From a virus (taxonomy: Duplodnaviria; Heunggongvirae; Uroviricota; Caudoviricetes): a stretch of 64,000 nt of DNA. This document shows, piece after piece, positions 44,648-64,000 of the stretch. Location of the stretch: IMG/VR virus record IMGVR_UViG_2851955134_000009. One strand, written 5' to 3'. The notes beneath the pieces were generated by a model, which made no database searches, had not been told where the DNA came from, and saw only the letters and a list, made by a program, of their open reading frames with translations. The position numbers were made by a program, and so were the translations under genes. Position 1 is the stretch's first letter. Each line of letters begins with the position of its first letter.

Positions 44648-45294
44648 TTCTGTAATCCTTCCCGTTCATCCAGTAGCGCGTTTATCTGGTTCCGCCAGCG
44701 ACGACATTGCCCTGCGTTGTCGATGATGTTGGCGAGAACGTCACGCTGGGAGACGCCTGAGTCGCGTAGCCAGGCGTCAGCGGTTTCAGGTTGCCCGGTC
44801 GCTGTGCCAGAGCGGGTGCCAGTGGCGGCAACTGAGTCTGAATGACCGCTGTCGACGGATGCGTTGTCATATCCGAGTGCGGCGTTGTACTGGCGCACGA
44901 AACCGCGAGTAAACACGCACTCAATGGGATGGCTCTTACCTTTTTCATCAATCCAGCGCTGTGTGACATCGTTAATTTGCCCCTGTAGTTGTTTATTCCG
45001 GCTCTCCAGTTGAGCAATCTGCTCAAGGTAACTGGCTTCAGCCTGCTGCCCGGCGGCCACCTGCTCCTGATACCGTTTTGCCCAGGCCCGCAACGCAGCG
45101 TTCTCAAGCGTTGCCTGCTCCGTTTTGTATTTGTCGAATGCTGACTGCAACTGACTGAGCGCGGTATTACCGTCACGCTTTGCAGAGTCATGACCACTGC
45201 TGTATCCCATGGCATACAGGCCGACCAGAAAGGCATTGATAAGAATGGCCAGCAGAATGCCGCGCCACGGCAGCTTTTTAACCAGATGCCACAC
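44644..45294 (-). CDS. Spanin-like lysis protein (TM plus coiled coil)
   Basis: Start set to GTG at 45294 with GGGAGG RBS; TM GILLAILINAFLVGLYAMGY then coiled coil. Confidence 0.55.
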   Translation of the reverse strand: MWHLVKKLPWRGILLAILINAFLVGLYAMGYSSGHDSAKRDGNTALSQLQSAFDKYKTEQATLENAALRAWAKRYQEQVAAGQQAEASYLEQIAQLESRNKQLQGQINDVTQRWIDEKGKSHPIECVFTRGFVRQYNAALGYDNASVDSGHSDSVAATGTRSGTATGQPETADAWLRDSGVSQRDVLANIIDNAGQCRRWRNQINALLDEREGLQK

Positions 45295-46018
45295 AACTGC
45301 TGCCTCCCCATGTGAGATATCGCGGTGCCAGCTCGCGCAGGATGCGTTGTGGATAATGGCGGTTCTCCCGCCAGCTGGCAGCATTGCGTCCGGCATTCAC
45401 CGTGGCGACATGTCCGAACCAGCGCTGACTGTCCAGCCCCAGATATGCGGCGAGCCGCTGGTCACGGCGCACCCAGCCCGGGCCACCGTTATAGCCCGAC
45501 AGTGTCATGGCCATACGCTCGCAGTCGCTGGCGGCACTGATGCGCTGCCACAGCCAGCGGTCATAACTGACCAGCGCCCGGATAGCCCATGCCGGATTAA
45601 ACGGCTCTCGACTGCTCAGCGCCGGCATCAACTGGCTTATCCAGTCGGCAGTGGCAGGCATAAACTGCGCCAGTCCCTGAGCCCCCACCGGCGAGATCGC
45701 ATCAGGTCGCCAGCCGCTTTCCTGATGCAGTTGCGCAGCGAAATCAGCCACCGGCGCAGACAGTCCCCATTCAAGCCGGGCATTACGGATCACATCATCG
45801 CGATACTGCAGGGCAGCCCGCGGGGGCTGTGCTGCGGATGCCTGACTGAAAAAGCCACCACACCAGAGCAACATTGCGACAAAGAATACCCATGCCATAT
45901 GAACCAGAAAGGTCCCGGCGCGGACTGACAGGCGTTCGGTTCTGATGAAGACCCGAAAGGCTTCGAAAGCCAGTTTCAGGGACATGCATACAATCCAGGT
46001 GATCTGCGGCCAGTTCAT
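45278..46018 (-). CDS. Lytic transglycosylase endolysin with N-terminal membrane anchor
   Basis: SLT-type motif (LHQESGWRP...AQGLAQFMPAT) and hydrophobic N-terminus; follows holin-like gene. Confidence 0.75.
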   Translation of the reverse strand: MNWPQITWIVCMSLKLAFEAFRVFIRTERLSVRAGTFLVHMAWVFFVAMLLWCGGFFSQASAAQPPRAALQYRDDVIRNARLEWGLSAPVADFAAQLHQESGWRPDAISPVGAQGLAQFMPATADWISQLMPALSSREPFNPAWAIRALVSYDRWLWQRISAASDCERMAMTLSGYNGGPGWVRRDQRLAAYLGLDSQRWFGHVATVNAGRNAASWRENRHYPQRILRELAPRYLTWGGSSCVASG

Positions 46019-46020: not shown

Positions 46021-46371
46021 TTAAAGCCCCATCGCAACAGCCAGACAGACAGCTGCAACAATCAGTGCACGACGAAGCAGGGCGGCAGCAAACACCAGAT
46101 GAAGCCCGGTCTGTACGGGCCAGCGCCCCTCAGCCATGAGGCGCTCGTCATGCTTCAGGTACTGCCCCGGGCGGGCCTTCGGGAAGAGCGAGCGGTCCAG
46201 CCAGTAGCCGAGAACGGAGGCGAGGGAGATGAGAGAGAGCTTGTACACCACCACCGGCAGCTGCTGGGGCGAGACCAGCGCGATGATGAGGAGCAGCAGT
46301 ACGGCGGCAACAAGCCAGCCACGCAGGCGGGTTTTTTGTACGTCTGCGATAAGGGAGGTGAGTTTTTTCAT
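46021..46371 (-). CDS. Holin-like membrane protein
   Basis: 116 aa with 2-3 TM helices, first gene of leftward late/lysis operon. Confidence 0.55.
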   Translation of the reverse strand: MKKLTSLIADVQKTRLRGWLVAAVLLLLIIALVSPQQLPVVVYKLSLISLASVLGYWLDRSLFPKARPGQYLKHDERLMAEGRWPVQTGLHLVFAAALLRRALIVAAVCLAVAMGL

Positions 46372-46503
46372 AAAGATGTCTCCTTGTGTAGTGGAGACAG
46401 CATCACAAATACGGGGCGCGAAGGATTTTAAAGCGCGTTAAGAGAGCCGGGGATACGGGATGCGCAGAATAAACGATGAATTATTCACAGAGGAGAATAC
46501 GAT

Positions 46504-47247
46504 ATGACGCACACACTGAATCCGGTCATCACTGTCACTGTGTCCGGTCCTGTGGGCAGCGGTAAAAGTTACGTACTGGCGCGGATAGAAGAGATGGTGA
46601 AACAGGAACTCGGAAACAGCGTCATTGTCGATGCTGCTGACGTGGAGAATGAGCGCCGTATGAGTGGCGATGATCTGACGACCTGGCAGAAGCCACGGGC
46701 TGGCACAGTGATCAGGCTGGAGGAATACACGGGACAGGGCCTGTTGTCATACGGCGAGGAGCGTATCTGTCGGACGAATGAGCTGCTGGATGTTATATGC
46801 CCCGCGGGCCGGCAACCCTGGATACTGCCCGATGCACTGCATGCCACCATTGCGGCACTGATGACAGTTTACGATCAGGAACTGCTCATGAAGGAGTTAC
46901 GTAAACTCACCGGTCAGCCAACAGAATGTTTTTCGGCCCCGAAGTACGGGAAGCAGGAACACATCCCGGTGAACACAATCCCCGTTAACCAGCCTCCCCG
47001 GTTCTTCGACGAATACATTCTGACACCGGAAAATAAAGCTGAGCATGAAGAGATCAAAGAGGCGTTGTTCCGGGAAATCAGGAAGATTGCTGAAATGCAA
47101 CTGGGGGGCGGGCTGGACAGAGTGATGGCGAGAGGAGAATGGGAGTCGCTGTTTGAAAGAGTTTCCCCGGAATTACTGCCCCTCGCACTGGCTATCGGGA
47201 TTATGCAGACAGCAGATAAACCTCACTTACGTTCATCAAACACGTAG
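46504..47247 (+). CDS. P-loop NTPase of unknown function (accessory)
   Basis: 247 aa; Walker A GPVGSGKS at residues 15-22; lies between lysis genes and repressor. Confidence 0.55.
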   Translation: MTHTLNPVITVTVSGPVGSGKSYVLARIEEMVKQELGNSVIVDAADVENERRMSGDDLTTWQKPRAGTVIRLEEYTGQGLLSYGEERICRTNELLDVICPAGRQPWILPDALHATIAALMTVYDQELLMKELRKLTGQPTECFSAPKYGKQEHIPVNTIPVNQPPRFFDEYILTPENKAEHEEIKEALFREIRKIAEMQLGGGLDRVMARGEWESLFERVSPELLPLALAIGIMQTADKPHLRSSNT

Positions 47248-47300
47248 CGCAGAATATTTTGCCGGTGAGTACATAAAAATCATCATTTAAGGAGTGCATC

Positions 47301-47516
47301 ATGAATCCCCGATTAACGTTAACAGAACATCAGCGCCGTGCTGAAGCAGTGAACAATGTTCTGGAAGATATTATCCGGTTACATCGCGGAGAACTGAGTG
47401 TCTGTCGTGCCGCTTTTCATTTTCAGGGAATACAAAAGCAGTTTGATACTTCTGTTTTTGCAGAAGGTATTACTTATGCCCTGGACCGGATAAGGTCAGA
47501 AAATCGCCCCGGATAA
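47301..47516 (+). CDS. Hypothetical small protein
   Basis: 71 aa; AAGGAG RBS. Confidence 0.5.
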   Translation: MNPRLTLTEHQRRAEAVNNVLEDIIRLHRGELSVCRAAFHFQGIQKQFDTSVFAEGITYALDRIRSENRPG

Positions 47517-47707
47517 TCCCTAAACCACATTAACAGAAATCCCACTATCCCTGCCGCATCATGAAAGAACGACCAGCCCGGTGCTTCGGACCCACCGGGC
47601 TGGCCATCGTCCCACAGAAGTGGCTGTGAGCCGACCGAGGTTCAGTCAGTCTCGCGAGACCAGACTAGCCTGCCATATTTTTAATAATTGTAAAAGGCTT
47701 ACAGATT

Positions 47708-48472
47708 ATGAAAATGCAGACATTACCCATCGTTCCATGGATTGGTGGCAAACGCCGCCTTGCAAAACACATTCTGCCGCTGTTTCCGGCGCATGAATGT
47801 TATGTGGAGCCGTTTTGTGGGGCAGCAGCGCTCTATTTTCTTAAGACACCCGGCAAGATCGAAGTCATCAATGATATCAACGGTGAACTGGTGAATCTGT
47901 ACCGGGTGGTAAAGCATCACCTGGAAGAATTTGTCCGCCAGTTCAAATGGGCGCTGGTCAGCCGTCAGATCTACAAATGGCTGCAGATCACCCCGGAAGA
48001 AACACTGACGGATATCCAGCGTGCGGCACGGTTCTACTACCTTCAGAAGCAGGCGTTTGGCGGCAAGGTGGCAGAGCACAGCTTCGGTACCTCCACCACA
48101 TCCCCGCCACGCTTCAACCTGCTGCGTATTGAAGAAGAACTGTCAGCGGCACACCTGCGGCTTTCCAGAACAGTCATAGAACACATGGACTGGCAACAGT
48201 GCATTGAGCGTTATGATCGTCCGCACACGCTGTTCTACTGCGACCCACCGTACCTGGGTACGGAAGGCTATGGTGTGGATTTTCCTGAAGGGAACTACTC
48301 GCGGCTGGCAGAGCTGGCCCGGTGCATCAGAGGAAAAATGATAATTTCGGTGAACGACATCCCGCAGATGCGCGAGGTGTTCACTGGACTGAACATACAG
48401 ACAGTGAATATCAACTACAGTCTGGCGGGTAAATCCACGCCGCGCCGTGAACTGCTAATCTGCAACTTCTGA
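47708..48472 (+). CDS. DNA N6-adenine methyltransferase (Dam-like, orphan)
   Basis: 254 aa; PWIGGKRRL N-terminal motif and DPPY catalytic motif (LFYCDPPYLGT); no restriction partner. Confidence 0.85.
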   Translation: MKMQTLPIVPWIGGKRRLAKHILPLFPAHECYVEPFCGAAALYFLKTPGKIEVINDINGELVNLYRVVKHHLEEFVRQFKWALVSRQIYKWLQITPEETLTDIQRAARFYYLQKQAFGGKVAEHSFGTSTTSPPRFNLLRIEEELSAAHLRLSRTVIEHMDWQQCIERYDRPHTLFYCDPPYLGTEGYGVDFPEGNYSRLAELARCIRGKMIISVNDIPQMREVFTGLNIQTVNINYSLAGKSTPRRELLICNF

Positions 48473-48588
48473 AACAAAACCGGAAAGCACAATGCTTTCC
48501 GGTAAACCAAACAACTTCCACTATGTCACTGGCGATGTTTTCTGAAATCATCCAGATCAACCACCTGTCTTTTGTGTCCGGGTCAGTA

Positions 48589-48936
48589 TCAGCCTGCGAT
48601 TTTTCCTGGTTTTGGCTGAGTATAGAAGCGCCCAACCTCAAGAAATGAGCGTCGTTGCTCCGGAGTCATTTCATCAAATGCGTCCATTAATTTCTGTTTG
48701 TCTGGTGACATTTTTGGGATAGCGTTGGTAGTTGCATCCCCTCTCTGTCCCGTAACAACGTAAAGCACGTCAAGCCCCAAAGTAGCCCAAATTGCCAAAG
48801 CATCTGCTCCGGGAGCGGATTCATCCTTTTCCCACCGCAATTGGCTTTTATAGGATGCCCCCACCAATTCAGCAAACTCAGACTGACTAAATCCTAGGCG
48901 GTTTCGTTCTTCTTTTAATCGTGAACCAAGTGACAT
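48589..48936 (-). CDS. Repressor-like HTH protein (XRE/Cro-C1 type)
   Basis: 115 aa; HTH (RLGFSQSEFAELVGASYKSQLRWE); divergent from Ner-like early operon. Confidence 0.7.
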   Translation of the reverse strand: MSLGSRLKEERNRLGFSQSEFAELVGASYKSQLRWEKDESAPGADALAIWATLGLDVLYVVTGQRGDATTNAIPKMSPDKQKLMDAFDEMTPEQRRSFLEVGRFYTQPKPGKIAG

Positions 48937-49029
48937 TTTTGTCCCAATATCTATTTACATATCCCATTATTGGGATAATAATCTAACAAATATAAAGCAA
49001 ACATCATTGCACTAAACAAGGAGACAACA
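48937..49029. promoter_or_regulatory. Divergent promoter/operator region between repressor and early operon
   Basis: AT-rich; inverted repeat CCCAATA (48943..48949) / TATTGGG (48968..48974); GGAG RBS before early gene. Confidence 0.45.
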
Positions 49030-49218
49030 ATGACTGCAGACCAGGTCAAAGCTCATTTCCGTCGCAATGGGATCACTTTTACCCAGTGGGCAAAACAGAA
49101 CAACTACACCAGAGCGGAGGTTTACCGCGTACTGAATGGCCAGGTAAAAGCGAACTACGGCAAAGCCCATGAAATCGCTGTCAAGCTGGGATTAAAAACC
49201 ATCACTGACGCCGCTTAA
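49030..49218 (+). CDS. Ner/Cro-like small DNA-binding protein
   Basis: 62 aa, first early gene; HTH-like NYTRAEVYRVLNGQ. Confidence 0.55.
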   Translation: MTADQVKAHFRRNGITFTQWAKQNNYTRAEVYRVLNGQVKANYGKAHEIAVKLGLKTITDAA

Positions 49219-49271
49219 AAAGATACAGCATACGAAAAAGATTATCACATATTGAAAAAAGAGGTGTGCAG

Positions 49272-49580
49272 ATGAGTAAGACGAATGTTTCAAGCTCCGG
49301 CAGTCGCATCCTCCGGGTACTAAAAGCGCTGCGTGGTCATGCTCTGAACGGTATTTCCAACGGTGAACTGGCAGCAGCACTGCACGAGTCACCGGCGAAC
49401 ATCAACCGGGCACTCAACACCCTCATTGAAGAAGGGCTGGCTCTGAAACTGGAGAACGGACGTTTCGCACCGGGCATTCAGTTGCTGCAGATCGCCATGG
49501 CCCACAGTAACGAGATGGCACGTGCACAGGATCGTATTAACGAAATTAACCAACGTGTTATTTCAGGAAGTCGTTTGTAA
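49272..49580 (+). CDS. Hypothetical DNA-binding protein
   Basis: ATG at 49272 with GAGG RBS; 102 aa. Confidence 0.5.
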   Translation: MSKTNVSSSGSRILRVLKALRGHALNGISNGELAAALHESPANINRALNTLIEEGLALKLENGRFAPGIQLLQIAMAHSNEMARAQDRINEINQRVISGSRL

Positions 49581-49590
49581 GGAGTAATCA

Positions 49591-50508
49591 ATGGGACGCA
49601 CCAAATCACCGGTTAGCACTGAACTGAACGTCGAGGTACCGCTGTCGGATGATCTCAATGTCAGTCTGAACGCCATGACACAGCATCGCATGGAAATCAT
49701 GCAACAGTTCGGCGATGGTCTGCCCTATGAGCGCGATCGTGTTGTCCATGAGGCACGCTTTTATATGGCACAGAGCGCTGAGGCCATGCTGGAGGCAGGT
49801 AAACGGCTAATAATCCTTAAGGAAAATGAACCACACGGGGAGTTTATAAAGATTCTTGAAAGTGAGTTGGGGCTGGCATACCGGACATCTGTGAGAATGA
49901 TGCAGGCATCGACAAAATACTTATCCCCGGCGCTGAAACCAAATGTGCCAACGTTGGCACATTTGGGAAAAGCCAAACTTTTCGAATTAATGACAGAAGA
50001 CGACGAAGAGCTTGCCGAACTGGCCGACGGCGGTACGGTTGCCGGCCTGACGCTTGACGATGTTGATCGCATGTCAGTACGTGAACTTCGTCAGGCCCTG
50101 CGCGAAGCGCGCGAAACCAATGCAGCACAACAGCGTGTTCTAGCCGACAAAAATGAAAAAATCGACTCACTCTCCACCAGGCTGGAGAAAAAATCCCGTA
50201 TTCAACCGCCTGAGCCTGATGAAGAGGTGAAGAAGCTGCGGGCGGAAGTGACCGCATTAGCGGTTGAGGCGGAATCTGCCATCGCCGTCCGGCTCTCCGG
50301 TGCCTTTGAAACCCTGTGTGAATACTGCAGTAAAAACATGATTGATACCCCCAGAGATTTCATGGCCGGTCTGGTCTGCCAGATTGAACGCAGTGTTCAT
50401 GCATTGCGTGAGACGTTCGACCTTGATGCCGCACCATCGGGTAACGATGTCCCCGCATGGCTGACCGAACCGGAGCCTGAAATCAACCGACCGGAGGGCA
50501 TGCGTTAA
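49591..50508 (+). CDS. Hypothetical early protein
   Basis: 305 aa, acidic, coiled-coil segment. Confidence 0.55.
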   Translation: MGRTKSPVSTELNVEVPLSDDLNVSLNAMTQHRMEIMQQFGDGLPYERDRVVHEARFYMAQSAEAMLEAGKRLIILKENEPHGEFIKILESELGLAYRTSVRMMQASTKYLSPALKPNVPTLAHLGKAKLFELMTEDDEELAELADGGTVAGLTLDDVDRMSVRELRQALREARETNAAQQRVLADKNEKIDSLSTRLEKKSRIQPPEPDEEVKKLRAEVTALAVEAESAIAVRLSGAFETLCEYCSKNMIDTPRDFMAGLVCQIERSVHALRETFDLDAAPSGNDVPAWLTEPEPEINRPEGMR

Positions 50509-50825
50509 TGAACACGAATAATACACAAAATATCCTGATGGACAGCCCGGAAGCACTGGGGCACGCACTGTGTAATCTGCTGCCGGAGATGGTGCAGGGT
50601 TTCCGCGTGGTGACACCTTCCGGTGAAATCTGCGTACCCGCACAGGAGGCGCATCCGTTTGTACTGACGATGGAAGTGATGCTGATGCAGCAGATAAGAC
50701 GTCTGCAGCATCAGTCAGCATTGCGCCCGGCAGTTGCGCCGCAACCGGTAAATAACGTGGTGAAAACCTGCGATGGCGAAACCCTGCGCGACCGTGCCAG
50801 AAAAATTGCCGCCAGAATCGGATAA
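50508..50825 (+). CDS. Hypothetical protein
   Basis: 105 aa; TAATG overlap. Confidence 0.45.
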   Translation: MNTNNTQNILMDSPEALGHALCNLLPEMVQGFRVVTPSGEICVPAQEAHPFVLTMEVMLMQQIRRLQHQSALRPAVAPQPVNNVVKTCDGETLRDRARKIAARIG

Positions 50826-50840
50826 CAGGGAAGACAAGCT

Positions 50841-52610
50841 ATGACCCCGGCACTGACTGAAAAACTTGTTGAAACAGCCCGCGCGGCACGTAATGCGGGG
50901 CATGGTAAACGCGGTGCAATATACGACGCTGCCTGTGCTGAACTTGGCATGTCCCGCGCCACTCTGCTGCGCAGGCTGAAGGAGGTCTCTGTGACTGATA
51001 AACGCAAAAAACGCGCCGATGCCGGACGCAGCACCCTGACCCGCGACGAAGCCGCGCTGATATCTGCCACACTACGTGAGGCCACCCGCAAGAACGGTAA
51101 GCGTCTCTATTCCATCGCGGATGCAGTGGAAACCCTGCGGGCTAACGGCTTTATCTCCGCAGGCAGAACAGATGAAACCACCGGTGAGTTTTTCCCGTTG
51201 TCCGAAGATGCCATCAGTCGTGCCCTGCGTAACTATGGCCTGCACCCGGAACAACTGGATGCCCCTGCACCGCATACCGAAGTGGCCAGTCTGCACCCCA
51301 ATCATGTCTGGCAGATTGACGCCTCACTCTGCACGCTTTACTACCTGAGCAATGGACATAAAGGGCTGCAGGTGATGGACAGCGCGAAATTCTACAAAAA
51401 CAAGCCCGCTAACCTTGCCCGTATCGCCAGTGACCGCGTGTGGAGTTACGAGATTACCGACCATGCCAGCGGCTGGATTTACGTTGAGTATGTGACGGGT
51501 GCGGAATCCGGTGAGAACCTGTGTTCTGTGCTTATCAACGCCATGCAGGAGCGTGGCGGCGCAGACGTGCTGCACGGCGTGCCAAAAATACTCTATCTCG
51601 ACCCCGGCTCGGCAAACACCGCGGGTATGACGAAAAACATGTGCCGCTCACTGGGCATCGACCTGATAGCGCACAAGCCGCATAACGCCCGCGCCACCGG
51701 ACAGGTGGAAAAGGCGCGTGACATTATCGAACGCAAGCTGGAGCCGGGTCTGAAGTTCCGGCCGGTTCACAGTCTGGAAGAACTCAACGCGCTGGCCGCG
51801 AAATGGCGCAGCCACTTTAACGCCACGGCTGTTCACAGCCGCCACGGTAAAACCCGCACGGATATCTGGCTGAAGATTACTGCTGAGCAGCTGAAAAAAG
51901 CGCCTTCCGTTGAGGTATGTCGTGAACTGGCTGTGGCGGCACCAGAACTCCGCAAAGTCACGCCAAAACTTCGTGTCTCGTTCCGGGGCACTGAATTTGA
52001 CGTATCAACGGTACCGGGCGTACTGGTCGGTGAAAAACTGATGATTACCCGTAACCCGTGGCGCAGCGATGTGGCACAGGTGGTTCTGACCGGTGAGGAC
52101 GGCCACGAGACGTTCTTCCTGGTCGAAGAGGTCAGAAAGAACGAGTTTGGCTTTGCTGAAGGCGCGGCGGTATTTGGCGAAAGTTACAAAGCCCTGCCGG
52201 AAACCCCGGCGCAGATGGCGGCAAAAGAAACCGAAGCGCTGGTCACCGGTACAGACAACGCCGCAGATGCAGCTGCCGCACGCAAGGCGAAGGCGCTGCC
52301 GTTCGGCGGGCGGCTTGACCCGTATAAACATATTGATGACGCCACACTTCCGGCCTGTATACCGAAGCGTGGTCAGGCCTCTGACGTACGCGGACCGCGC
52401 ACTGAACAGCGTCCCATGACTCATGTGGAGGCCGCGAAAGCCCTGCGCGGGAAGTTTAGCGCAAACGGCCTGACCTGGACGCCGGAACATTACCGCCAGT
52501 TAACAGCACAGTACCCGGACGGCGTACCGGAAGCCGCACTGGATGAAGTCATGGCCACGCTGACCACGCCGGCCCGCAGCAGCGTTATCAGCATTGTTAA
52601 CGGCAACTGA
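50841..52610 (+). CDS. DDE transposase (retroviral-integrase-type core), transposable-phage A-like
   Basis: 589 aa; N-terminal HTH; core with HVWQIDAS, YLDPGSANT and downstream E; followed by AAA+ partner. Confidence 0.8.
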   Translation: MTPALTEKLVETARAARNAGHGKRGAIYDAACAELGMSRATLLRRLKEVSVTDKRKKRADAGRSTLTRDEAALISATLREATRKNGKRLYSIADAVETLRANGFISAGRTDETTGEFFPLSEDAISRALRNYGLHPEQLDAPAPHTEVASLHPNHVWQIDASLCTLYYLSNGHKGLQVMDSAKFYKNKPANLARIASDRVWSYEITDHASGWIYVEYVTGAESGENLCSVLINAMQERGGADVLHGVPKILYLDPGSANTAGMTKNMCRSLGIDLIAHKPHNARATGQVEKARDIIERKLEPGLKFRPVHSLEELNALAAKWRSHFNATAVHSRHGKTRTDIWLKITAEQLKKAPSVEVCRELAVAAPELRKVTPKLRVSFRGTEFDVSTVPGVLVGEKLMITRNPWRSDVAQVVLTGEDGHETFFLVEEVRKNEFGFAEGAAVFGESYKALPETPAQMAAKETEALVTGTDNAADAAAARKAKALPFGGRLDPYKHIDDATLPACIPKRGQASDVRGPRTEQRPMTHVEAAKALRGKFSANGLTWTPEHYRQLTAQYPDGVPEAALDEVMATLTTPARSSVISIVNGN

Positions 52611-52620
52611 GGAGGGAAAC

Positions 52621-53787
52621 ATGCTGGTACTGAAGCAGCAACTGAAAGAGGCCCGTATTCCACAGGCGGTGGCGGCGAGAGCTGTCGATGTTTCTGAGGC
52701 CACGCTGGCCCAGATTGTGAATCATAACGCGTGGCCCCGCACCAGCCCCGGAGAAGTGCGCCGGCGTCTTGCGTCCTGGCTGGAAAGTCAGGGGATTGAT
52801 ACAACGAAGAGTTTTGATGCTGTACAGGGCGCGGCCACGCCCCGTACAGCGGGTACCACAGATAAAACGAGCCTCAGTGAGGAAGAGAATATGTTACTCA
52901 AAAAACAGGTGTTATTTCCAGCAACCAAAAAAGCGTTTGGTCTTTTCCGTGACCCGTTCGCCGATGAAGCCATGCAGGGTTCTGATGATGTGTTCACCAC
53001 CCCGGACATTCGCTACGTGCGTGAGGCGCTGTACCAGACAGCCCGTCATGGTGGGTTTATGGCCGTCATCGGTGAGTCCGGTGCGGGTAAATCCACGCTG
53101 CGCCGCGACCTGACTGAACGTATTAACCGCGAGAATGCGCCGGTAATTGTTATCGAGCCATACATCATCGCTATGGAAGACAACGATGTGAAAGGGAAAA
53201 CCCTGAAGGCAGCAGCTATTGCCGAAGCCATTATCAGTACCATCGCACCACTGGAAAGCATCAGACGCAGTCAGGACGCCCGCTTTCGCCAGTTGCATCG
53301 CGTCCTGAAAGACAGCAGCCAGGCGGGGTTCAGCCACGTTCTGGTGATTGAGGAGGCCCACAGTCTGCCCATTCCGACACTGAAACACCTCAAACGCTTT
53401 TTTGAGCTGGAGTCCGGTTTCAAAAAACTGCTGTCCATCGTGCTGATTGGCCAGCCGGAACTGGCGACAAAACTGTCTGAACGCAATATGGAAGTCCGTG
53501 AAGTCGTTCAGCGCTGTGAGGTGGTCGAACTTCTGCCTCTGGACAATAACCTTGAAGAATTTCTGACGTTCAAACTGCAACGGGCCGGTAAACAACTGAC
53601 GGACATTATGGACGCCAGCGCAGTGGATGCCATACGTGCCCGCCTGAGCAATCCGGGAAGTCATCGTAAAAATATGGTCAGCCTGCTGTATCCGCTGGCC
53701 GTCAGTAACCTGGTAATAGCCGCCATGAATCTGGCCGCTGAAATCGGGGTTCCACAGGTCAACGCTGACGTTGTCAAAGGAGTTTAA
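52621..53787 (+). CDS. AAA+ ATPase transposition helper (Mu B-like)
   Basis: 388 aa; N-terminal HTH; Walker A GESGAGKST; Walker B VLVIEEAH. Confidence 0.8.
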   Translation: MLVLKQQLKEARIPQAVAARAVDVSEATLAQIVNHNAWPRTSPGEVRRRLASWLESQGIDTTKSFDAVQGAATPRTAGTTDKTSLSEEENMLLKKQVLFPATKKAFGLFRDPFADEAMQGSDDVFTTPDIRYVREALYQTARHGGFMAVIGESGAGKSTLRRDLTERINRENAPVIVIEPYIIAMEDNDVKGKTLKAAAIAEAIISTIAPLESIRRSQDARFRQLHRVLKDSSQAGFSHVLVIEEAHSLPIPTLKHLKRFFELESGFKKLLSIVLIGQPELATKLSERNMEVREVVQRCEVVELLPLDNNLEEFLTFKLQRAGKQLTDIMDASAVDAIRARLSNPGSHRKNMVSLLYPLAVSNLVIAAMNLAAEIGVPQVNADVVKGV

Positions 53788-53789
53788 TA

Positions 53790-54059
53790 ATGAAATCCAC
53801 CACAGGTATCAACCAGCAAATCAGCAAAGTGCAGTCAGCCATTATGGCGCTTAAGGCGACGAACACGGATGTACAAAGCATCACCATCAGGGGTAACAAA
53901 CCTGTCATCCGCGTTTCCCGGAGTGCGCATTGCATGCGCATGCTTGAGCAGGGAAAGGCCTGTTATCTGTATACCGGACATGACCACAGGGGATATTTCC
54001 GTCAGGGCGTTTTCGAACTGCACGGCTGTCGCGTCGTGTGGCCGGAATCTTTGTGGTAA
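53790..54059 (+). CDS. Hypothetical protein
   Basis: 89-aa ORF directly after the ATPase gene. Confidence 0.45.
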   Translation: MKSTTGINQQISKVQSAIMALKATNTDVQSITIRGNKPVIRVSRSAHCMRMLEQGKACYLYTGHDHRGYFRQGVFELHGCRVVWPESLW

Positions 54060-54086
54060 TCAGCACAACCGGAGAAATCATAAAAT

Positions 54087-54617
54087 ATGGCAAAAAGTAC
54101 AAAAGGGGCAAAACGTATCAAGGCCGCAGCGGCACTCTGGGTACCAGGGACACGCGAAGAGGTCATTGAGGGAATCAGACTACTCGGTGACGCACAACGT
54201 GAACTGGTCAGGGCTGAAACAGAAATGAATGACGCCATTGGCGATATCACCGCACGTTATGCCCCGCTCACCGAGAGCCTGAAAAAACGCATGGCCGAAC
54301 TGCAGTCCGGTATCCAGACATGGTGTGAGGCGCACCGTGATGAACTGACCGGCAACGGGAAGGTGAAGTTCGCTAACCTTACCACCGGCGAGGTGCAGTG
54401 GCGAAACCGTCCGCCATCAGTCAGTATCCGTGGGGCGGATAATGTTATTGAATTACTGAGACGTCTGGGGCTTGAGCGCTTTATTCGTGTAAAAGAGGAA
54501 ATAAATAAAGACGCTATCCTGAATGAAAAAGAGGCCGTGAAAAATATTCCCGGTATTTCCATTAAAAGCGACATTGAGGATTTTTCAATAATTCCTTTTG
54601 AGCAGGATGTGCAGTAA
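54087..54617 (+). CDS. gam: Gam-like host-nuclease inhibitor
   Basis: 176 aa; strong similarity to Mu Gam as recalled (RIKAAAA...TEMNDAI...WCEANRDELT...SIRG...FIR.K.EINK.AIL...SDIEDFSIIPFEQ). Confidence 0.85.
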   Translation: MAKSTKGAKRIKAAAALWVPGTREEVIEGIRLLGDAQRELVRAETEMNDAIGDITARYAPLTESLKKRMAELQSGIQTWCEAHRDELTGNGKVKFANLTTGEVQWRNRPPSVSIRGADNVIELLRRLGLERFIRVKEEINKDAILNEKEAVKNIPGISIKSDIEDFSIIPFEQDVQ

Positions 54618-54714
54618 ACACACCACGTTAATTATTTAATAAAAACATTTTCTTTTTTATTCCGGCGTCAGCGCCGCGGGCTTCTGCACGCCGGAAACAG
54701 AGGAGAATTAAATC

Positions 54715-54909
54715 ATGATATTTAAATGTATTCAGTGCGAGAGGGATATAACAGCCCTGCGTTTTCACAGCGCCATCGCCGTGATGTCCGGTAAATACCA
54801 CATCCCTGCGGTACGCGTCACCCTGGTCTGCCCGTACTGCAGCCAGCATTTTTCGGCGGACGTGCCCGTCATGGAATTCTCCCGCCCTGACAGGGAGGAC
54901 GCGCAATGA
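54715..54909 (+). CDS. Small zinc-ribbon protein
   Basis: 64 aa with CxxC (CIQC) and CxxC (CPYC); GAGGAG RBS. Confidence 0.5.
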   Translation: MIFKCIQCERDITALRFHSAIAVMSGKYHIPAVRVTLVCPYCSQHFSADVPVMEFSRPDREDAQ

Positions 54910-55178
54910 TTACCCCACAGGAAGCACGACAGCGCACCCGAACCCTTGTTGAACACTATGTCAACGAGTGTGAATGCCGCAACCTCACCGATGTGAAGCA
55001 CGTCCTGACGGCACTAATCAGTATGGCCGCTCAGGCCATTGTGGCAACCAACGGAAAGGCGGCTGCCCTGCAGGTACTGGTGAACACACTCACCCACACG
55101 GCAGAGCATGAGGTGCCGTACCGGATGGAAACCACTGCAGAAGGCGGCCTGCACATCACCGTCAGCCGGAAGCACTGA
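54906..55178 (+). CDS. Hypothetical protein
   Basis: 90 aa, ATGA overlap. Confidence 0.45.
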   Translation: MITPQEARQRTRTLVEHYVNECECRNLTDVKHVLTALISMAAQAIVATNGKAAALQVLVNTLTHTAEHEVPYRMETTAEGGLHITVSRKH

Positions 55179-55187
55179 GGGCGCGGC

Positions 55188-55484
55188 ATGACACGGAACA
55201 CCATACTCACCCGCACCGCCCTCTACCGTCTGGCCCTGCAGCGTTTCGGGCCGGACGCACAGGCCCTGAAACTGACAGAAGAGGCCGCTGAACTGGCGGC
55301 CAGTGCTGCCCGCAATCTGAACGGACAGGGCAGCGAAAGTGACCTCGCGGCAGAGCTGGCAGACGTGGAAATCATGACAGAGCAATTGCGCCTTCAGGGA
55401 ATGGACCGGCTGATTGACTTCCACAAACAGAAAAAACTGGAACGTCTGGCTGCACGACTGGGCGTGATTTACACGAACGAGTAA
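55188..55484 (+). CDS. MazG-like nucleotide pyrophosphohydrolase domain protein (tentative)
   Basis: 98 aa with paired acidic helices KLTEEAAELA ... AELADVEIM typical of the MazG/NTP-PPase fold. Confidence 0.45.
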   Translation: MTRNTILTRTALYRLALQRFGPDAQALKLTEEAAELAASAARNLNGQGSESDLAAELADVEIMTEQLRLQGMDRLIDFHKQKKLERLAARLGVIYTNE

Positions 55485-55498
55485 CCGGGAGGCATTCA

Positions 55499-55714
55499 AT
55501 GGCTGACATACTCAGGGAAATCACCGCATGGACACTGATTCTTACTGGCCTGGCGACATGCCTCAGTGCGGGAGCAGCCCTGGCTGCCCTGCTGATGCAC
55601 ATAACAACACAGTGGTTATGGGAAAAGCTTAAAGCAGCATACAGCCTGAAAGAGCTGTCCGACGCTGTCCGGGCATGGAAACGGCAGAAAAATACCGGAG
55701 ATACAGAACAATGA
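55499..55714 (+). CDS. Small membrane protein
   Basis: 71 aa, one TM helix. Confidence 0.45.
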   Translation: MADILREITAWTLILTGLATCLSAGAALAALLMHITTQWLWEKLKAAYSLKELSDAVRAWKRQKNTGDTEQ

Positions 55715-56394
55715 CAGACCAGAATAAACACATTGAGAAACTGAAAAAGTTGCTGGCGCTGGCCGCATCCGGCAACCCGCACGAGGCCGCTCTGGCACTG
55801 CGCCGAGCCCGTAAACTGATGGATGTTCACGGCATCACACATTCCGACATTGCTATGAGTGATATTGATGAAACCATCAGTCATTACTGGCCGACAGGCA
55901 GTCTCCGTCCACCGCGCTACATGCTGGGCCTGATGAACATCATCCGCGAGGCATTTGGTGTTAACTCCATCATTCACCCCGGCACGCATCCGTCTGTGGG
56001 GTTCTACGGTAACCGGGAACGAGCGGCACTGGCTGCGTACACCTGGGAAGTGCTGGTCCGCCAACTGAAAAAGGCGCGTCAGCAGTATATCAGCGCACAG
56101 AACAAAAGAATAAAAAACGCCACCCGTACCAGCCGTGGAGACCAGTTTGCTGAAGGCTGGGTACTGGCCGTTATCAGTGAAATACAGTCCTTTGCCCTGA
56201 CCGATGATGAGCGTGAACTGATGCAACAGTGGCTGGAACATAAATACCCGCAAACGCAAACCACCAGGGCGCGTAAACCGGGAAGAAGCCGCAATGGCGA
56301 CGTCTCGCGCTATGCGGGGTTTCGTGAAGGGCAGAACGTCAGACTGCACCGCCCGGTCAGTGGGCAGGAACAGCAGAAACTGGAGGCCAGATGA
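55711..56394 (+). CDS. Hypothetical protein (DUF2786-like N-terminus)
   Basis: ATG at 55711 (ATGA overlap); N-terminal KLKKLLALAASGNPHEAA motif. Confidence 0.5.
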   Translation: MTDQNKHIEKLKKLLALAASGNPHEAALALRRARKLMDVHGITHSDIAMSDIDETISHYWPTGSLRPPRYMLGLMNIIREAFGVNSIIHPGTHPSVGFYGNRERAALAAYTWEVLVRQLKKARQQYISAQNKRIKNATRTSRGDQFAEGWVLAVISEIQSFALTDDERELMQQWLEHKYPQTQTTRARKPGRSRNGDVSRYAGFREGQNVRLHRPVSGQEQQKLEAR

Positions 56395-56621
56395 TTACGT
56401 TATCAGGTAACAGCCGGAAATTAAAAGCCTGCCGAATATCTCCCAGATACCTTTTTGCCCGCGCCTTTTTTAAGAACGTCAGGCCGGGGATCACAATTGG
56501 TGTTATTGCCGGACGCGAACAGGTTGAAAAATACATGTCAGGTGCATGGTGGAATAAAGACCCTGTCATTGCTGCCCGTAATATTCATATCAGTTGGGGG
56601 GATATTCAGAATGACTGCTGA
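56391..56621 (+). CDS. Hypothetical protein
   Basis: 76 aa, ATGA overlap. Confidence 0.35.
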   Translation: MITLSGNSRKLKACRISPRYLFARAFFKNVRPGITIGVIAGREQVEKYMSGAWWNKDPVIAARNIHISWGDIQNDC

Positions 56622-56826
56622 ATCTGTTGTATGTGCCCTGTTCTGGTATTGTTTTGTCGGTTGGTGTACTGCTGAACTGCACCGCCGTTCAGGGTTTTAT
56701 TCACGTTACAGTGGTGCCGGTTACTGGATTAGCTGGTCGGTGATGTTCCTGTGCTGGCCTGTGGCATTTCCTTTATATGTCTATTATATCAGTGATGCAG
56801 GCAGAAGGAGCAACGATGATGACTAA
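56611..56826 (+). CDS. Small membrane protein
   Basis: Internal ATG at 56611 with G-rich RBS; two TM helices. Confidence 0.4.
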   Translation: MTAESVVCALFWYCFVGWCTAELHRRSGFYSRYSGAGYWISWSVMFLCWPVAFPLYVYYISDAGRRSNDDD

Positions 56827-57268
56827 ACAACGTCTTATCCAGCTTATCCATATTGCCCGTAATGAACTGGGTATGGATGAAGACACCTACCGCCAGATGT
56901 TACAGGGGCTGACCGGTAAAGCCTCAACCAAAGGAATGGATACCACACAACTAAACTGCGTGCTGGAATCCATGAAAAAGAAAGGCTTTCGCGTTAAACC
57001 AGCCAGAAAAGCCAGCTCCGGTTTACCGCTGGATAACCATCCGCAGTCCAGGAAAATTCGTGCGCTATGGCTTGAAATGGCTGCTGCCGGCATTGTTCGT
57101 GACCGTTCAGAAAATGCATTAGCGAGGTGGATCAAGCGGGAAACGGGCATCAGCGCCCTGCGCTGGCTCAGTACTGAACAGGCAGGCAGTGTTATTGAGA
57201 AACTGAAGAAGTGGCAGCACAGAGCTGCGGGAGTAAAACATGAGCGACCTGAATCAGTTTCGAAGTAA
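56816..57268 (+). CDS. gemA: GemA-like regulatory protein (Mu gp16 family)
   Basis: 150 aa; MTKQRLIQLIHIARNELGMDEDTYRQML...; AGGAG RBS. Confidence 0.65.
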   Translation: MMTKQRLIQLIHIARNELGMDEDTYRQMLQGLTGKASTKGMDTTQLNCVLESMKKKGFRVKPARKASSGLPLDNHPQSRKIRALWLEMAAAGIVRDRSENALARWIKRETGISALRWLSTEQAGSVIEKLKKWQHRAAGVKHERPESVSK

Positions 57269-57638
57269 AGGGCCGGAACTCCTGGTGGAACTGGCACAGC
57301 ATACCTCTGAGACCGTTCGCGAGATTATTGATATTGAGCCCGCAATTGCCGACCAGATTGGTCAGGCCGTCGCGAACCGCATGATGCAGGTCTGGGGCGG
57401 GCAAAACGTTTATTTCCCGATGGGCATGGTATGGAAGGTCAGTCAGCGCGACCGGGAAATCTTCAGGGAGTTTAACGGACGTAACCACCATGAACTGGCC
57501 CGCAAATTTGGTGTTTCGCTTCAGTGGGTCTACAGCGTGGTTAAGCGGGTAAGAAAAGAAGAACTGGATCGGATGCAGGGCAGGTTGTTTGATGAAGATC
57601 TGCCAGAGGAGACGAAAGACGTTAACAAATCCAGATAA
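57240..57638 (+). CDS. mor: Mor-like middle-operon transcriptional activator
   Basis: 132 aa; C-terminal HTH (ELARKFGVSLQWVYSVVKR); position after gemA as in Mu. Confidence 0.65.
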   Translation: MSDLNQFRSKGPELLVELAQHTSETVREIIDIEPAIADQIGQAVANRMMQVWGGQNVYFPMGMVWKVSQRDREIFREFNGRNHHELARKFGVSLQWVYSVVKRVRKEELDRMQGRLFDEDLPEETKDVNKSR

Positions 57639-57682
57639 TTCCTGCTTGTTAAAGTCCTTTCAAAAATCTCCTTATTGTATAA

Positions 57683-57714
57683 AAGCACGGTAGACCCCTT
57701 ACCGTGCTTTTTTT
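57683..57714 (+). terminator. Rho-independent terminator ending the early operon
   Basis: Perfect 10-bp stem AAGCACGGTA/TACCGTGCTT, 7-nt loop, followed by T7. Confidence 0.8.
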
Positions 57715-57752
57715 ATGCTCTCTCTTTAGTATTCAGGATGCAGGGAGAAAAT

Positions 57753-58385
57753 ATGTTTGACGTTTCGTTGTTAAATCTGCCATGGGCAACACTGGTGACC
57801 CTGACCAGTGGCTATATTGGGTATTTTATTGCGAATGTGGGACTGAAGGATCACCACAAGCCCATTGAGGTGACTTTTTCTTCGCTGATTTTTGGCCTGA
57901 CAGCAATGATGGCTTACCAGGCTGTTATGTGGGCAGGTCTGAATGCCTGGCTGGCAACACCACCAGCACTTCTGTGTGCCGTTACATGCGGTGCGTGGTG
58001 GCGCAGGTACGGTCGCAAATGGATGTACAGATTACTGTGGAATAATGATATTTCATGGTCTGACGATACCAGCTCAGCATGGCAGGCAATGTTTGATCAA
58101 ACAGGCTTCAGCGTTACCGAGGTCAGAGTGATTCTTCGCGATGGTTCCGGTATGATGTCACGGCTGCCAGGGAACTTTGAAGAGTGGCCTAACGGTCCGT
58201 TTACCCTGGGGAATAAAGGCGATATGGTTCTTTACGTCACGCACAGCAGCCCTTCAGGCAGTAACGAATGGGAAGAGTATAAAGGCGTGGTTGATAAGTA
58301 CTGGGGAGCTCTGGCAACCTATATTCCAGCAGATCAGATTGCCAGAGTGGAGATCAGGCGCGTTCGTGCAACGAACGATGAATGA
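57753..58385 (+). CDS. Membrane protein moron at the element left end
   Basis: ATG at 57753 with GGGAG RBS; 210 aa; 3 predicted TM helices at N-terminus; separated from early operon by a strong terminator. Confidence 0.6.
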   Translation: MFDVSLLNLPWATLVTLTSGYIGYFIANVGLKDHHKPIEVTFSSLIFGLTAMMAYQAVMWAGLNAWLATPPALLCAVTCGAWWRRYGRKWMYRLLWNNDISWSDDTSSAWQAMFDQTGFSVTEVRVILRDGSGMMSRLPGNFEEWPNGPFTLGNKGDMVLYVTHSSPSGSNEWEEYKGVVDKYWGALATYIPADQIARVEIRRVRATNDE

Positions 58386-58689
58386 TGTTTATTTTTTCCC
58401 TGGGGCAGGGGCTGCCGGCATAGTGGTTTTATTGGCAGAGGAAGACGATTCTCCTTTTCTACCGGAATCGCGCTCGAACGTCACGATGTGCTTGCTTTTG
58501 GGCTTTTCTGAGTAATCCAGGCTATCATGCTTATTGTTTTGAGTAGTCATTGGAATCATCCTTTTTGTTGCGGGTCATGTTTCAGCAAACTCGATTCTAA
58601 GTTGCCAGGAAGGATGATTTCAATGCCCGACTTATCTATCGTATAGCGGAAAAGAATTTCAGTTCTGTTCACCAGAACCCATGTTAACC

Positions 58690-58746
58690 CACTCCAATTC
58701 GTTATTTATCTCACGGATCCCCCTTCATTTATCTCATGTCTGATCA
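58690..58746. repeat. Left-end terminal repeat region (transposase binding sites)
   Basis: Reverse complement reads TGATCAGACATGAGATAAATGA...GTGAGATAAATAA, same motif spacing as the right end. Confidence 0.7.
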
Positions 58747-58771
58747 ATTATTGCGTGTCAGGAGCGAAACA

Positions 58772-59203
58772 GTGAACAAACCACAATCCCTGCGCCACGC
58801 CCTCAATAAAGCGGTGCCTTATGTCCGCAATAACCCGGACAAACTGCATCTGTTTGTGGATAACGGTTCGCTGGTTGCCACGGGGGCCAGCTCCATGTCA
58901 TGGGAGTACCGCTACACCCTGAACGTGGTGATTGAGGATTTCAGCGGCGACCAGAATCTGCTGATGGCCCCGGTTTTGCTGTGGCTGCGTGATAACCAGC
59001 CCGATGCCATCAATAACCCGGCGTTACGGGAAAAGCTATTCACCTTTGAGGTGGATATTCTGCGCAACGATGTCTGTGATATCAGCCTCAACCTGCAACT
59101 GACGGAGCGTGTGCTGGTCAGCACTGACGGCAGTGTGTCGAGCGTTGAAGCTATAGCGGAACCTGATGAACCTGAAGAAATGTGGACGGTGAAACGTGGC
59201 TGA
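58772..59203 (+). CDS. R: Tail completion protein (P2 gpR-like)
   Basis: GTG at 58772 with AGGAG RBS; the track start at 58736 lies inside the Mu-like end and is probably not native. Confidence 0.75.
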   Translation: MNKPQSLRHALNKAVPYVRNNPDKLHLFVDNGSLVATGASSMSWEYRYTLNVVIEDFSGDQNLLMAPVLLWLRDNQPDAINNPALREKLFTFEVDILRNDVCDISLNLQLTERVLVSTDGSVSSVEAIAEPDEPEEMWTVKRG

Positions 59204-59642
59204 ACTGCAGAAAGTGGACGACTGGCTGAGTGCCTTGCTGGCGAATCTGGAGCCAGCCGCAAGAAGCCGCATGATGCGCCAGCTGGCGCAGGAACTACGC
59301 CGGACACAGCAGCAAAATATCAGAATGCAGCGCAATCCAGATGGCAGCAGTTATGAACCGCGACGGGTAACAGCACGCAGTAAAAAAGGCCGTATCAAAC
59401 GTCAGATGTTTGCAAAGCTGCGCACCACAAAATACCTGAAAACTTCCGCCAGCGCCGACTCTGCCAGCGTGCAGTTTGAAGGCAAGGTGCAGCGCATTGC
59501 CCGCGTTCACCATTACGGCCTGCGAGATCGCGTCAGTCGTAAGGGACCGGAGGTGCGTTACGCAGAGCGTCGCCTTCTGGGTGTAAATGATGATGTTGAG
59601 GCAATGACCCGCGACATGATTCTGCAATGGCTGGCGGGGTGA
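59196..59642 (+). CDS. S: Tail completion protein (P2 gpS-like)
   Basis: 148 aa, overlapping R stop. Confidence 0.75.
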   Translation: MAELQKVDDWLSALLANLEPAARSRMMRQLAQELRRTQQQNIRMQRNPDGSSYEPRRVTARSKKGRIKRQMFAKLRTTKYLKTSASADSASVQFEGKVQRIARVHHYGLRDRVSRKGPEVRYAERRLLGVNDDVEAMTRDMILQWLAG

Positions 59643-59710
59643 TCTTTGTATCAGCACTGATACAAGTTGCAGCACTGCCGCCTTTCTTCCCCTGATGGCA
59701 ACCTTTCCCT

Positions 59711-60289
59711 ATGAACGCACAATTAACCGAAATCATGCGCCTTATCACCAACCTGATCCGCACAGGGGTAGTCACCGAAGTGGACAGGGAAAACTGGCTT
59801 TGCCGGGTGAAAACGGGCGAGCTTGAAACCAACTGGATCAGCTGGCTGACGCTGCGTGCCGGGAATGCCCGTACATGGTGGCGACCATCGGAAGGTGAGC
59901 AGGTGGTGCTGCTGAGTCTGGGCGGCAATCTGGAAACCGCCTTTGCGCTGCCCGCTGTCTATTCGAATCAGTTCGCACCACCGTCGACGTCGGCGGACGC
60001 CTGCGTGACAGAACATCCTGACGGTGGCTGGTTTGAATACGAACCCGCCACCGGGCGCTGGTATGTCAGGGGCATCAAATCAATGGTCATTGAGGCTGCT
60101 GACAACATCACCATGAAAACCAGTGAGTTTGTACTGGAGGCTGACCGCACGCGCATTAACAGCGAAGTGGTGATCAATGGTGGCGTTACCCAGGGCGGCG
60201 GAGCGATGAGTTCTAACGGGATCGTGGTTGATGCGCATCAGCATACTGGCGTCCTGAAAGGCGGCGATACAACCGGAGGCCCGGTATGA
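59711..60289 (+). CDS. V: Baseplate spike protein (P2 gpV-like)
   Basis: 192 aa, V-W-J-I order. Confidence 0.8.
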   Translation: MNAQLTEIMRLITNLIRTGVVTEVDRENWLCRVKTGELETNWISWLTLRAGNARTWWRPSEGEQVVLLSLGGNLETAFALPAVYSNQFAPPSTSADACVTEHPDGGWFEYEPATGRWYVRGIKSMVIEAADNITMKTSEFVLEADRTRINSEVVINGGVTQGGGAMSSNGIVVDAHQHTGVLKGGDTTGGPV

Positions 60290-63493: not shown

Positions 63494-63494
63494 T

Positions 63495-63935: not shown

Positions 63936-64000
63936 CATCTGGCGCGGTGCTGGTATCAGTTGCCGTCACCGCGTCAATGTAATCCAGTACAGCGTTAAGG
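63907..64000 (-). CDS. Partial convergent tail fibre assembly gene (3' end only, rest outside window)
   Basis: Minus-strand frame encodes ...LNAVLDYIDAVTATDTSTAPDVIWPELPEA-stop, a fibre-assembly-chaperone C-terminus overlapping the end of G. Confidence 0.5.
   Translation of the reverse strand, partial: LNAVLDYIDAVTATDTSTAPDVIWPELPEA

Follow-up and report, generated by a model that had tools for sequence, protein, structure and literature searches.

The transposable phages most relevant to the element considered here are those of the BcepMu/B3 type. BcepMu carries its genes in two clusters, one of genes 1-13 (bottom strand) and one of genes 17-52 (top strand), with the lysogeny control functions where the two meet, and it was described as having no fibre inversion system (PMC2771037). 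Its transposase is unrelated to that of Mu and was placed as a distant member of the Tn552-IS1604 family (PMC2771037), and a 6-bp direct repeat is regarded as the footprint of transposases of the B3/Tn552 family (PMC8705779). The two-arm organisation, the transposase family, the TG-CA ends and the 6-bp footprint have all been described (PMC2771037, PMC5977238, PMC8705779). We analysed a stretch of 64,000 nucleotides of viral DNA (IMG/VR record IMGVR_UViG_2851955134_000009), the whole of which is called the window below, and we conclude, with a probability of roughly 95%, that its positions 21152-58746 are one intact-looking transposable myovirus prophage of Escherichia coli of the BcepMu/B3 type, a "saltovirus" with a Tn552/IS481-related DDE transposase and with its Mor end at the right in the window. 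The two-arm layout of this prophage is ancestral for the BcepMu/B3-type group. The element type is already known, and its architecture has been in the literature since 2004.

The limits of the prophage were defined by comparison with an empty site. The uninterrupted P2-like lysB/lysC-R region of E. coli SCU-115 aligns with the window up to position 21151 and resumes at 58747, and the sequence ATTATT, which is present once in the empty site (...GACATGATTATT, followed at the junction by GCGTGTC), is found twice in the window, at 21146-21151 and at 58747-58752. This alignment fixes the ends of the element at 21152 and 58746 and identifies the 6-bp repeats as a target-site duplication. The element is thus 37,595 bp in length (about 37.6 kb), begins with 5'-TGATG, ends with GATCA-3', and lies inside the lysC gene of a P2-like prophage. 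A preliminary annotation made from the letters of the window, here called the sequence-only reading, had set block boundaries at 21230, 46371, 49030 and 58385; these stand as limits of gene blocks and not as ends of the element. The sequence as a whole points to a probably mobile transposable phage nested in a P2-like prophage.

Both ends of the element carry two copies of the sequence G[CA]GATAAAT, at positions 12-20 and 35-43 counted from the terminus. The fibre-proximal terminus (21152-21200, plus strand) opens with 5'-TGATG and contains GCGATAAAT at these two places, and the Mor-proximal terminus (58700-58746, minus strand) closes with ATCA-3' and contains GAGATAAAT. The more permissive motif G[CA]GATAWWT has only five matches in the 64-kb window, and four of the five are the terminal copies just described. 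The ends of BcepMu (TGA...TCA) likewise bear G[CA]GATAWWT twice, at matching distances from the terminus. Furthermore, the variant of the first repeat is specific for the end in both phages, with GAGATA at the Mor-proximal end and GCGATA at the fibre-proximal end. These terminal repeats are presumed to be binding sites for the transposase.

Comparison of the gene maps was carried out by tblastn with the 54 open reading frames (ORFs) of the element against BcepMu and Mu. Matches to BcepMu were obtained for 36 of the 54, in strictly collinear order and with the relative strands of both arms and of the repressor gene as they are in the element; the minus-strand late genes of the element correspond to BcepMu plus-strand genes 21-52, and its plus-strand early genes correspond to minus-strand genes 1-16. 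Ten ORFs matched Mu, namely those for Gin (76% identity), Gam (61.5%), GemA (36%), Mor (31%), TerL, the portal, F and G, together with a fibre fragment and a weak baseplate match; MuA and MuB were left unmatched. The sequence-only reading had proposed a BcepMu-type transposable phage, and these matches, among them the transposase and its ATPase partner, bear out that proposal. The genes that it named were found at their positions by the ORF map and by domain searches, the ORF map also reproduced its picture of leftward late genes diverging from rightward early genes, and the genome comparison that it proposed showed that order and strands follow BcepMu and not Mu. Its premise that early and late genes are co-directional in Mu is correct for the early operon; in Mu, too, the c repressor gene points away from that operon, and what truly sets the element apart from Mu is the direction in which its early operon runs with respect to the late genes.

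The transposition genes also depart from those of Mu. The transposase gene (50841-52610, plus strand) encodes a DDE (rve) protein of 589 aa of the BcepMu/B3 (Tn552/IS481-related) type, which is 68% identical over 98% of its length to BcepMu gp09 and 56% identical to the transposases of Beetrevirus. The only Pfam match in this protein is rve, and none of the four Mu domains (HTH_Tnp_Mu_1, HTH_Tnp_Mu_2, DDE_2 and Mu-transpos_C) was found by Pfam in either the element transposase or BcepMu gp09; in the same comparison, MuA matched all four and MuB matched Phage-MuB_C. A BLASTP comparison with MuA revealed no similarity (best E 0.2). Directly downstream lies the gene for an ATPase of 388 aa and of the AAA_22/ExeA family (52621-53787, plus strand; Pfam AAA_22, E 4e-20), which is 59% identical to BcepMu gp08. 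In Pfam this ATPase and BcepMu gp08 match AAA_22 only, which is the one domain in common with MuB, Phage-MuB_C being absent from both, and BLASTP of the element ATPase with MuB gave no similarity (E 2.4). The description of the transposase as distinct from MuA and paired with an AAA+ ATPase was thus well founded, and the 388-aa protein is presumed to serve as a MuB-like activator of target DNA.

More sensitive searches qualify what "non-MuA" should be taken to mean. A phmmer search of the transposase and the ATPase against the sequences of the PDB found no MuA, TnsB or TnsC, and no MuA chain at E<1; the matches obtained were marginal, to retroviral integrases and to generic P-loop proteins. 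The remote homology captured by PHROGs places the transposase with MuA in phrog_310 and the ATPase with MuB in phrog_296 ("DNA transposition protein"). The transposase matches the phrog_310 profile from position 130 onward only, which corresponds to a transposase without the N-terminal DNA-binding region of MuA. Since phrog_310 is common to the two transposases, "non-MuA" denotes a different family of DDE transposases and not an unrelated fold. Judged by these profiles, the two proteins are distant cousins of MuA and MuB with an equivalent job, outside the MuA and MuB families.

The remaining genes of the early arm, all on the plus strand, are arranged around this pair. The early operon starts at 49030-50825 with genes for a Ner-like helix-turn-helix (HTH) protein (49030-49218), an IclR-type winged HTH protein (49266-49580), a DUF3102 protein (49591-50508) and orf105 (50508-50825), which were assigned by Pfam and by matches, in order, to BcepMu gp16, gp12 and gp10. 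The rest of the operon (53790-57638), assigned by Pfam, consists of orf89, Gam (54087-54617), small ORFs, a DUF2786/DUF7168 protein (55675-56394), GemA (56777-57268) and Mor (57240-57638). The Mu-like character ascribed to Gam, GemA and Mor was upheld, both by the identities to the Mu proteins given above and by Pfam (E 1e-40, 2e-40 and 1e-43, respectively); GemA and Mor are 43% and 56% identical to their BcepMu counterparts. Between Mor and the terminus lies an accessory ORF, orf236 (57675-58385), with hydrophobic N-terminal segments. Its residues 27-236 are matched by phrog_12870, and the true start is probably at 57753, for a protein of 210 aa. SA53-3 and FDN-4 carry it as an annotated gene of 633 bp, and the copy in strain JJ2434 lacks it. 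The place that it occupies, next to the end of the element on the Mor side, is a second cargo slot.

The first such slot lies in the central region. The sequence-only reading had the arms diverge from a central region; the diverging arms stand, and there are two divergence points instead of one, at 46372-46503 (between the holin and P-loop genes) and at 48937-49029 (between the repressor and ner-like genes). The second of these is the lysogeny switch proper. The lysogeny repressor (48589-48936, minus strand) is a Cro/CI-type protein of the Pfam HTH_3 family that is 37% identical to BcepMu gp17 and has the same orientation relative to the arms as gp17. The 93-bp gap that forms the switch region (48937-49029) contains an early promoter, TTTACA-17-AATAAT (48954-48982), which is a good sigma-70 match, along with operator-like TCCCA/TGGGA repeats.

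Between the two divergence points is a variable accessory module (46504-48472, plus strand; Pfam, PHROGs and PADLOC), consisting of a P-loop protein gene (46504-47247), an ORF of 71 aa (orf71, 47301-47516) and a D12-class Dam adenine methylase gene (47708-48472; PADLOC type II MTase model, E 8e-113). PHROGs places products of this module in families of unknown function, phrog_3787 for the P-loop protein and phrog_4490. The module is convergent with the repressor gene across a hairpin terminator (48479-48503), in which an 11-bp stem between the dam and repressor genes is followed by a T-run on the minus strand. The P-loop, orf71, orf236, DUF3102 and DUF2786 proteins gave no matches in PADLOC, where the methylase alone matched MTase models, and none in NCBIfam. 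The slot between the lysis cassette and the repressor gene differs in gene content in other E. coli copies (L007, L008 and L009). Genes annotated there include those for a KAP NTPase, an ABC ATPase, a DUF2441 protein and others, and also a 987-bp gene that is co-directional with the repressor gene.

A 17-nt inverted repeat (94% complementary; 46377-46393 and 49010-49026) flanks the central 2.6 kb, and no other inverted repeat touches 46372-46503. It consists of the Shine-Dalgarno leader CACTAMACAAGGAGACA, followed by ATG, that is common to the holin and ner-like genes. Among the relatives searched, this leader is found upstream of the holin gene in three (L005, L007 and L009) and upstream of the ner-like gene in one (L005). 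The possibility that the repeat is a recombination scar was rejected because it is a shared ribosome-binding leader that recurs in relatives.

The late arm (22956-46371, minus strand) was defined by collinear tblastn matches to BcepMu gp21-gp52, by the annotation of Escherichia phage PhiKM and by Pfam. Leftward from the holin (46021-46371), the order is SLT endolysin (45278-46018), an Rz-like gene (44644-45396), TerS, TerL, portal, Mu F/G-like genes, protease, capsid and P2-like tail genes; read from the opposite side, the arm comprises tail fibre, P2-like baseplate, tail, sheath, tube and tape-measure genes, Mu-like head genes, and then TerL, TerS and the lysis genes. The leftward gene run extends down to 21230. 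The earlier description of all of this as a leftward late block is right overall and fails for the left 2.3 kb, which is made up of a Gin-like invertase gene and an invertible fibre segment with a plus-strand ORF. The invertase is a serine recombinase (21230-21931, minus strand; Pfam Resolvase, E 1e-50, and HTH_7), with a longest ORF of 233 aa and an annotated gene of 573 bp in relatives. The invertible segment of 1.6 kb (21866-23476) is bounded by 229-nt inverted repeats (21866-22094 and 23248-23476) and holds the C-terminus of the fibre, a tail-fibre assembly gene (22342-22956) and an alternative plus-strand ORF (21874-22335). When the window was aligned with three other E. coli copies, the segment (21864/22291-23476) aligned in reverse and its flanks aligned forward; the inversion switch therefore appears to be active.

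Candidate promoters for the late arm were found at several places. The divergent intergenic region 46372-46503, between the leftward holin gene and the rightward P-loop gene, contains a candidate activator-dependent late promoter with a CTTTAAAATCC box, and no sigma-70 consensus promoter was found in this region. A similar TTAAAAT-type box lies upstream of the protease gene and upstream of gene E, so that the candidate late promoters of the holin, protease and E genes all have a TTAAAAT or TTAATAT box without a recognisable -35 element. A related box, GATTAAAAG, is found upstream of BcepMu gp21 and gp32. The gap between the G-like and protease genes (38972-39185) contains a palindrome with a T-run (GGCTGTATTACCTTTATAAAGGCTTTACAGCC), followed by a AGCAGATTAAAATC box, and both the palindrome and the box are kept in BcepMu (18648-18849) despite protein identity of about 50%. 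These features are probably a terminator and a late promoter. A Mu-like central gyrase site was also considered for the palindrome; given the T-run that follows it, a terminator is the simpler reading.

Other copies of the element are widespread in E. coli. Within a survey set of 5426 complete genomes, a 12.3-kb region was detected in 644, and the element type is present in about one-eighth of complete E. coli genomes. A 5.9-kb probe that reached from the lysis cassette across the central region into the beginning of the early arm matched one same-strand place in 635 of the 5426 genomes, with at least 80% of the probe covered in 480. Four copies were examined and proved to be at four different sites, and 6-bp duplications were evident in three of them, at unrelated locations: ATTATT for the element itself, ATCATA for a copy between uvrD and corA, and GAAGAA for a copy between aroA and ycaL in the ST131 strain JJ2434. 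The copy in FDN-4 (NZ_CP158026.1) resides in an SPI-7-type island. It is 99.8% identical to the window, as are the copies in LR-31 and VTB96937v. All full copies that were inspected have the same two-arm layout.

Of the explanations that compete with a BcepMu/B3-type prophage, the least improbable holds that the element is a recent Mu x BcepMu recombinant, founding a new hybrid lineage marked by gam and by gin with its invertible fibre segment. The similarity of Gam and Gin to the Mu proteins argues for this view, and neither has a tblastn match in BcepMu; so do the report that BcepMu is without a fibre inversion system (PMC2771037) and the inverted state of the fibre segment in the window relative to other copies. 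The backbone, however, is of the BcepMu type throughout, in its termini, transposition genes, switch and 30 late genes, and temperate phages are habitually mosaic through swaps of accessory and fibre modules. Furthermore, E. coli genomes commonly carry this lineage, a phage belonging to it has been deposited, and BcepMu-like prophages of enterobacteria are mentioned in the literature (PMC7302871). A recent recombinant is thus very improbable, and it would in any case refine the BcepMu-type reading instead of offering a true alternative to it.

The second explanation, which the sequence-only reading had left possible, is that a canonical Mu-like prophage underwent an inversion of its early block (49030-58385) privately in this genome. 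This was a possibility a priori, and Gam, GemA, Mor and Gin are indeed Mu-like, but the transposase and ATPase are not MuA or MuB. A check for inverted-repeat scars at 46372-46503 and at the right boundary of the block had been suggested; a search for such a scar linking 46372-46503 with 58386-58746 found none. A private inversion is excluded because the layout is contiguous in the 635 genomes, recurs at different sites and is also that of PhiKM, BcepMu and JBD18, and because the Mor-proximal end is a genuine terminus, with a target duplication and with the GAGATA variant of BcepMu. A final explanation, in which leftward head and tail genes of the surrounding P2-like prophage merely adjoin a rightward Mu-like remnant, draws on the P2-like tail genes and on the genuine P2-like prophage on both flanks, and it has a negligible chance of being correct since the empty site shows all 37,595 bp to be a single insertion between the ATTATT copies in P2 lysC, the P2-like prophage keeps its own R, S and V tail genes to the right, the 37-38-kb unit is also found at non-prophage sites, and BcepMu itself has P2-like tail genes in identical order.

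Certain observations weigh against the reading of the element as a BcepMu/B3-type prophage in one respect or another, and no item contradicts the assignment as such. The FDN-4 copy has no matching duplication, being flanked by GCCGGA on the left and ATTATG on the right; at least one copy therefore appears to have been rearranged after insertion, and the data suggest that in FDN-4 this took place beside the prophage. Megablast with the 12.3-kb region did not find BcepMu, and the assignment is made at the level of the BcepMu/B3-type phages as a whole; the GenBank record of PhiKM, a close relative, lists that phage under Bcepmuvirus. The late promoters are candidates whose motif, drawn from a small number of short matches, is no more than suggestive. 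The role of the terminal repeats in transposase binding is one that we infer, and the regulatory circuit outlined next is a proposal modelled on the biology of Mu and BcepMu.

The analysis shows which genes are present, in what order and in which orientation, as well as the termini, the target duplications, the movement from site to site and the homology with BcepMu, and a phage built in this way would most likely operate as follows. The Cro/CI-type repressor (48589-48936) would keep the early promoter at 48954-48982 shut. Induction would allow transcription of the rightward early operon, with expression of the Ner-like regulator, the transposase and its AAA+ partner, Gam, GemA and lastly the Mor-family activator. 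The transposase would bind the G[CA]GATAAAT pairs in each of the TG...CA termini and, along with the ATPase, insert the element and move it by replicative transposition, with target duplications of 6 bp as the result, and Gam would protect DNA ends. Mor, the product of the last conserved gene of the early operon, would then activate promoters of the opposite arm in trans, upstream of the holin (near 46430), protease (near 39040) and E (near 33125) genes, to turn on the leftward lysis, head and tail genes. Late activation in trans would free the early and late genes from having to run in one direction, so that the two arms can face away from each other.

The flanks of the element (window 1-21151 and 58747-64000) belong to the P2-like prophage, whose Rz1-like spanin gene, lysC, is interrupted. 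To the left are P2-like genes for an integrase (1-1053), a CI repressor (2833-3429), a Dam methylase (5516-6433), gpA (6430-8844) and the portal and terminase (13676-16467), followed next to the element by lysozyme (20135-20650) and lysB (20647-21075). To the right are gpR (from 58736), gpS (59196-59642) and gpV (59711-60289); the longest gpR ORF has its first ATG, at 58736, within the terminus of the inserted element. Two low-GC islands of the P2-like prophage, at 1136-2812 and 10614-13610, are at the sites of known P2 variable loci. One island has a gene for a T5orf172/DUF4041 protein beside the integrase gene, and the other, in the interval between gpA and the portal, has three genes with ABC-3C domains (CTD9, MC5 and an SMC/AAA_15-type ATPase). 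The genes of these islands are probably anti-phage cargo.

The features that drew attention to the element are published hallmarks of its group, since they are described in the BcepMu/B3 literature; the divergent layout and the Tn552/IS481-related transposase are textbook traits that separate BcepMu/B3-type phages from Mu. Annotated prophages almost identical to the element already exist in hundreds of E. coli genomes, and the practical value of the analysis is for annotation, in that the element is now delimited to the base and should not be taken for a rearranged Mu. Of more specialist interest are the end-specific repeat variants kept between E. coli and Burkholderia phages, the presence of Mu-like gam and gin modules on a BcepMu backbone, and the variable cargo slots. 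A more speculative proposal, which we consider possible and rather doubtful, is that the enterobacterial BcepMu-type branch is a currently active lineage influenced by Mu, with gam, a gin fibre module and two fixed variable cargo slots that could be a hot-spot for defence or anti-defence genes like those of P2 and P4. If this is true, the insertion into the spanin gene lysC of the resident P2-like prophage would be a case of one prophage disabling another.

Among the known systems, the insertion sequences offer a comparison for the transposase. The nearest non-phage relatives of its transposase are IS481-family transposases on plasmids, with about 25% identity and E-values down to 7e-20. The rve core is in common, and the element transposase matches the IS481 model weakly and significantly (E 1.5e-18), with a score of 67 bits against a family cut-off of 224. 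Unlike the transposases of IS481 and Tn552, the element protein is far longer, is phage-borne and has an AAA+ ATPase partner; the likeness to Tn552 is taken from published descriptions of the group. Mu (Muvirus) is likewise a temperate, transposable myovirus, about 37 kb long and with TG...CA ends, and it shares with the element Gam, GemA, a Mor-family activator and Gin together with a fibre segment that can invert; its TerL, portal, F and G proteins are related to those of the element. It differs in that its early operon points the same way as its middle and late genes and its repressor gene is at the left terminus, neither of which is true of the element. Mu also makes a target duplication of 5 bp instead of 6 bp, has MuA and MuB domains that Pfam does not find in the element proteins, uses two activators, Mor and C, where one alone was found in the element, and has tail genes that are not P2-like, whereas those of the element are.

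The Pseudomonas B3-like phages (Beetrevirus, for example JBD18/JD18 and JBD25) share the early arm, running from the Ner-like gene through transposase, ATPase and GemA to Mor at the terminus, and the divergence of this arm from a lysis and late arm; they differ in being siphoviruses with unrelated tail genes and another host. In essence, one and the same phage is represented by the element, by Escherichia phage PhiKM (PQ738613), by Klebsiella phage KP12 and by hundreds of E. coli prophages, such as that of ST131 strain JJ2434. PhiKM aligns with 87% of the early and central region at 95% nucleotide identity and keeps the gene order; its repressor allele is 46% identical to that of the element. 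Other differences within this set involve the capsid and TerS alleles, the central and Mor-adjacent accessory genes, the orientation of the fibre segment and the insertion site. The PhiKM record, labelled as a partial genome, is circularly permuted: it starts in TerS and has the two termini, the fibre end and the Mor end, joined internally at about 20.2-20.7 kb, and the ends of the record do not correspond to the true phage ends.

The Burkholderia phage BcepMu (NC_005882; Bcepmuvirus) and phiE255 are also among the closest known systems. In both, two arms diverge as they do in the element and the early arm closes with GemA and Mor, and BcepMu has a homologous transposase, ATPase, repressor and Ner-like switch, along with the holin/SLT endolysin/Rz cassette, the Mu-like terminase, portal and head genes and the P2-like tail genes in preserved order. 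The protein identities are just 31-76%. In the interval between ATPase and GemA, BcepMu has SSB-, HU-, DUF3164- and pyrophosphatase-like genes where the element has Gam and the DUF2786 protein; its central accessory genes are others and run in the opposite direction to the rightward ones of the element. BcepMu has an acyltransferase gene where the element has the Gin-type invertible fibre segment, and the element has an additional ORF between Mor and the terminus. These differences from BcepMu are the normal mosaicism to be found inside a known group of phages.

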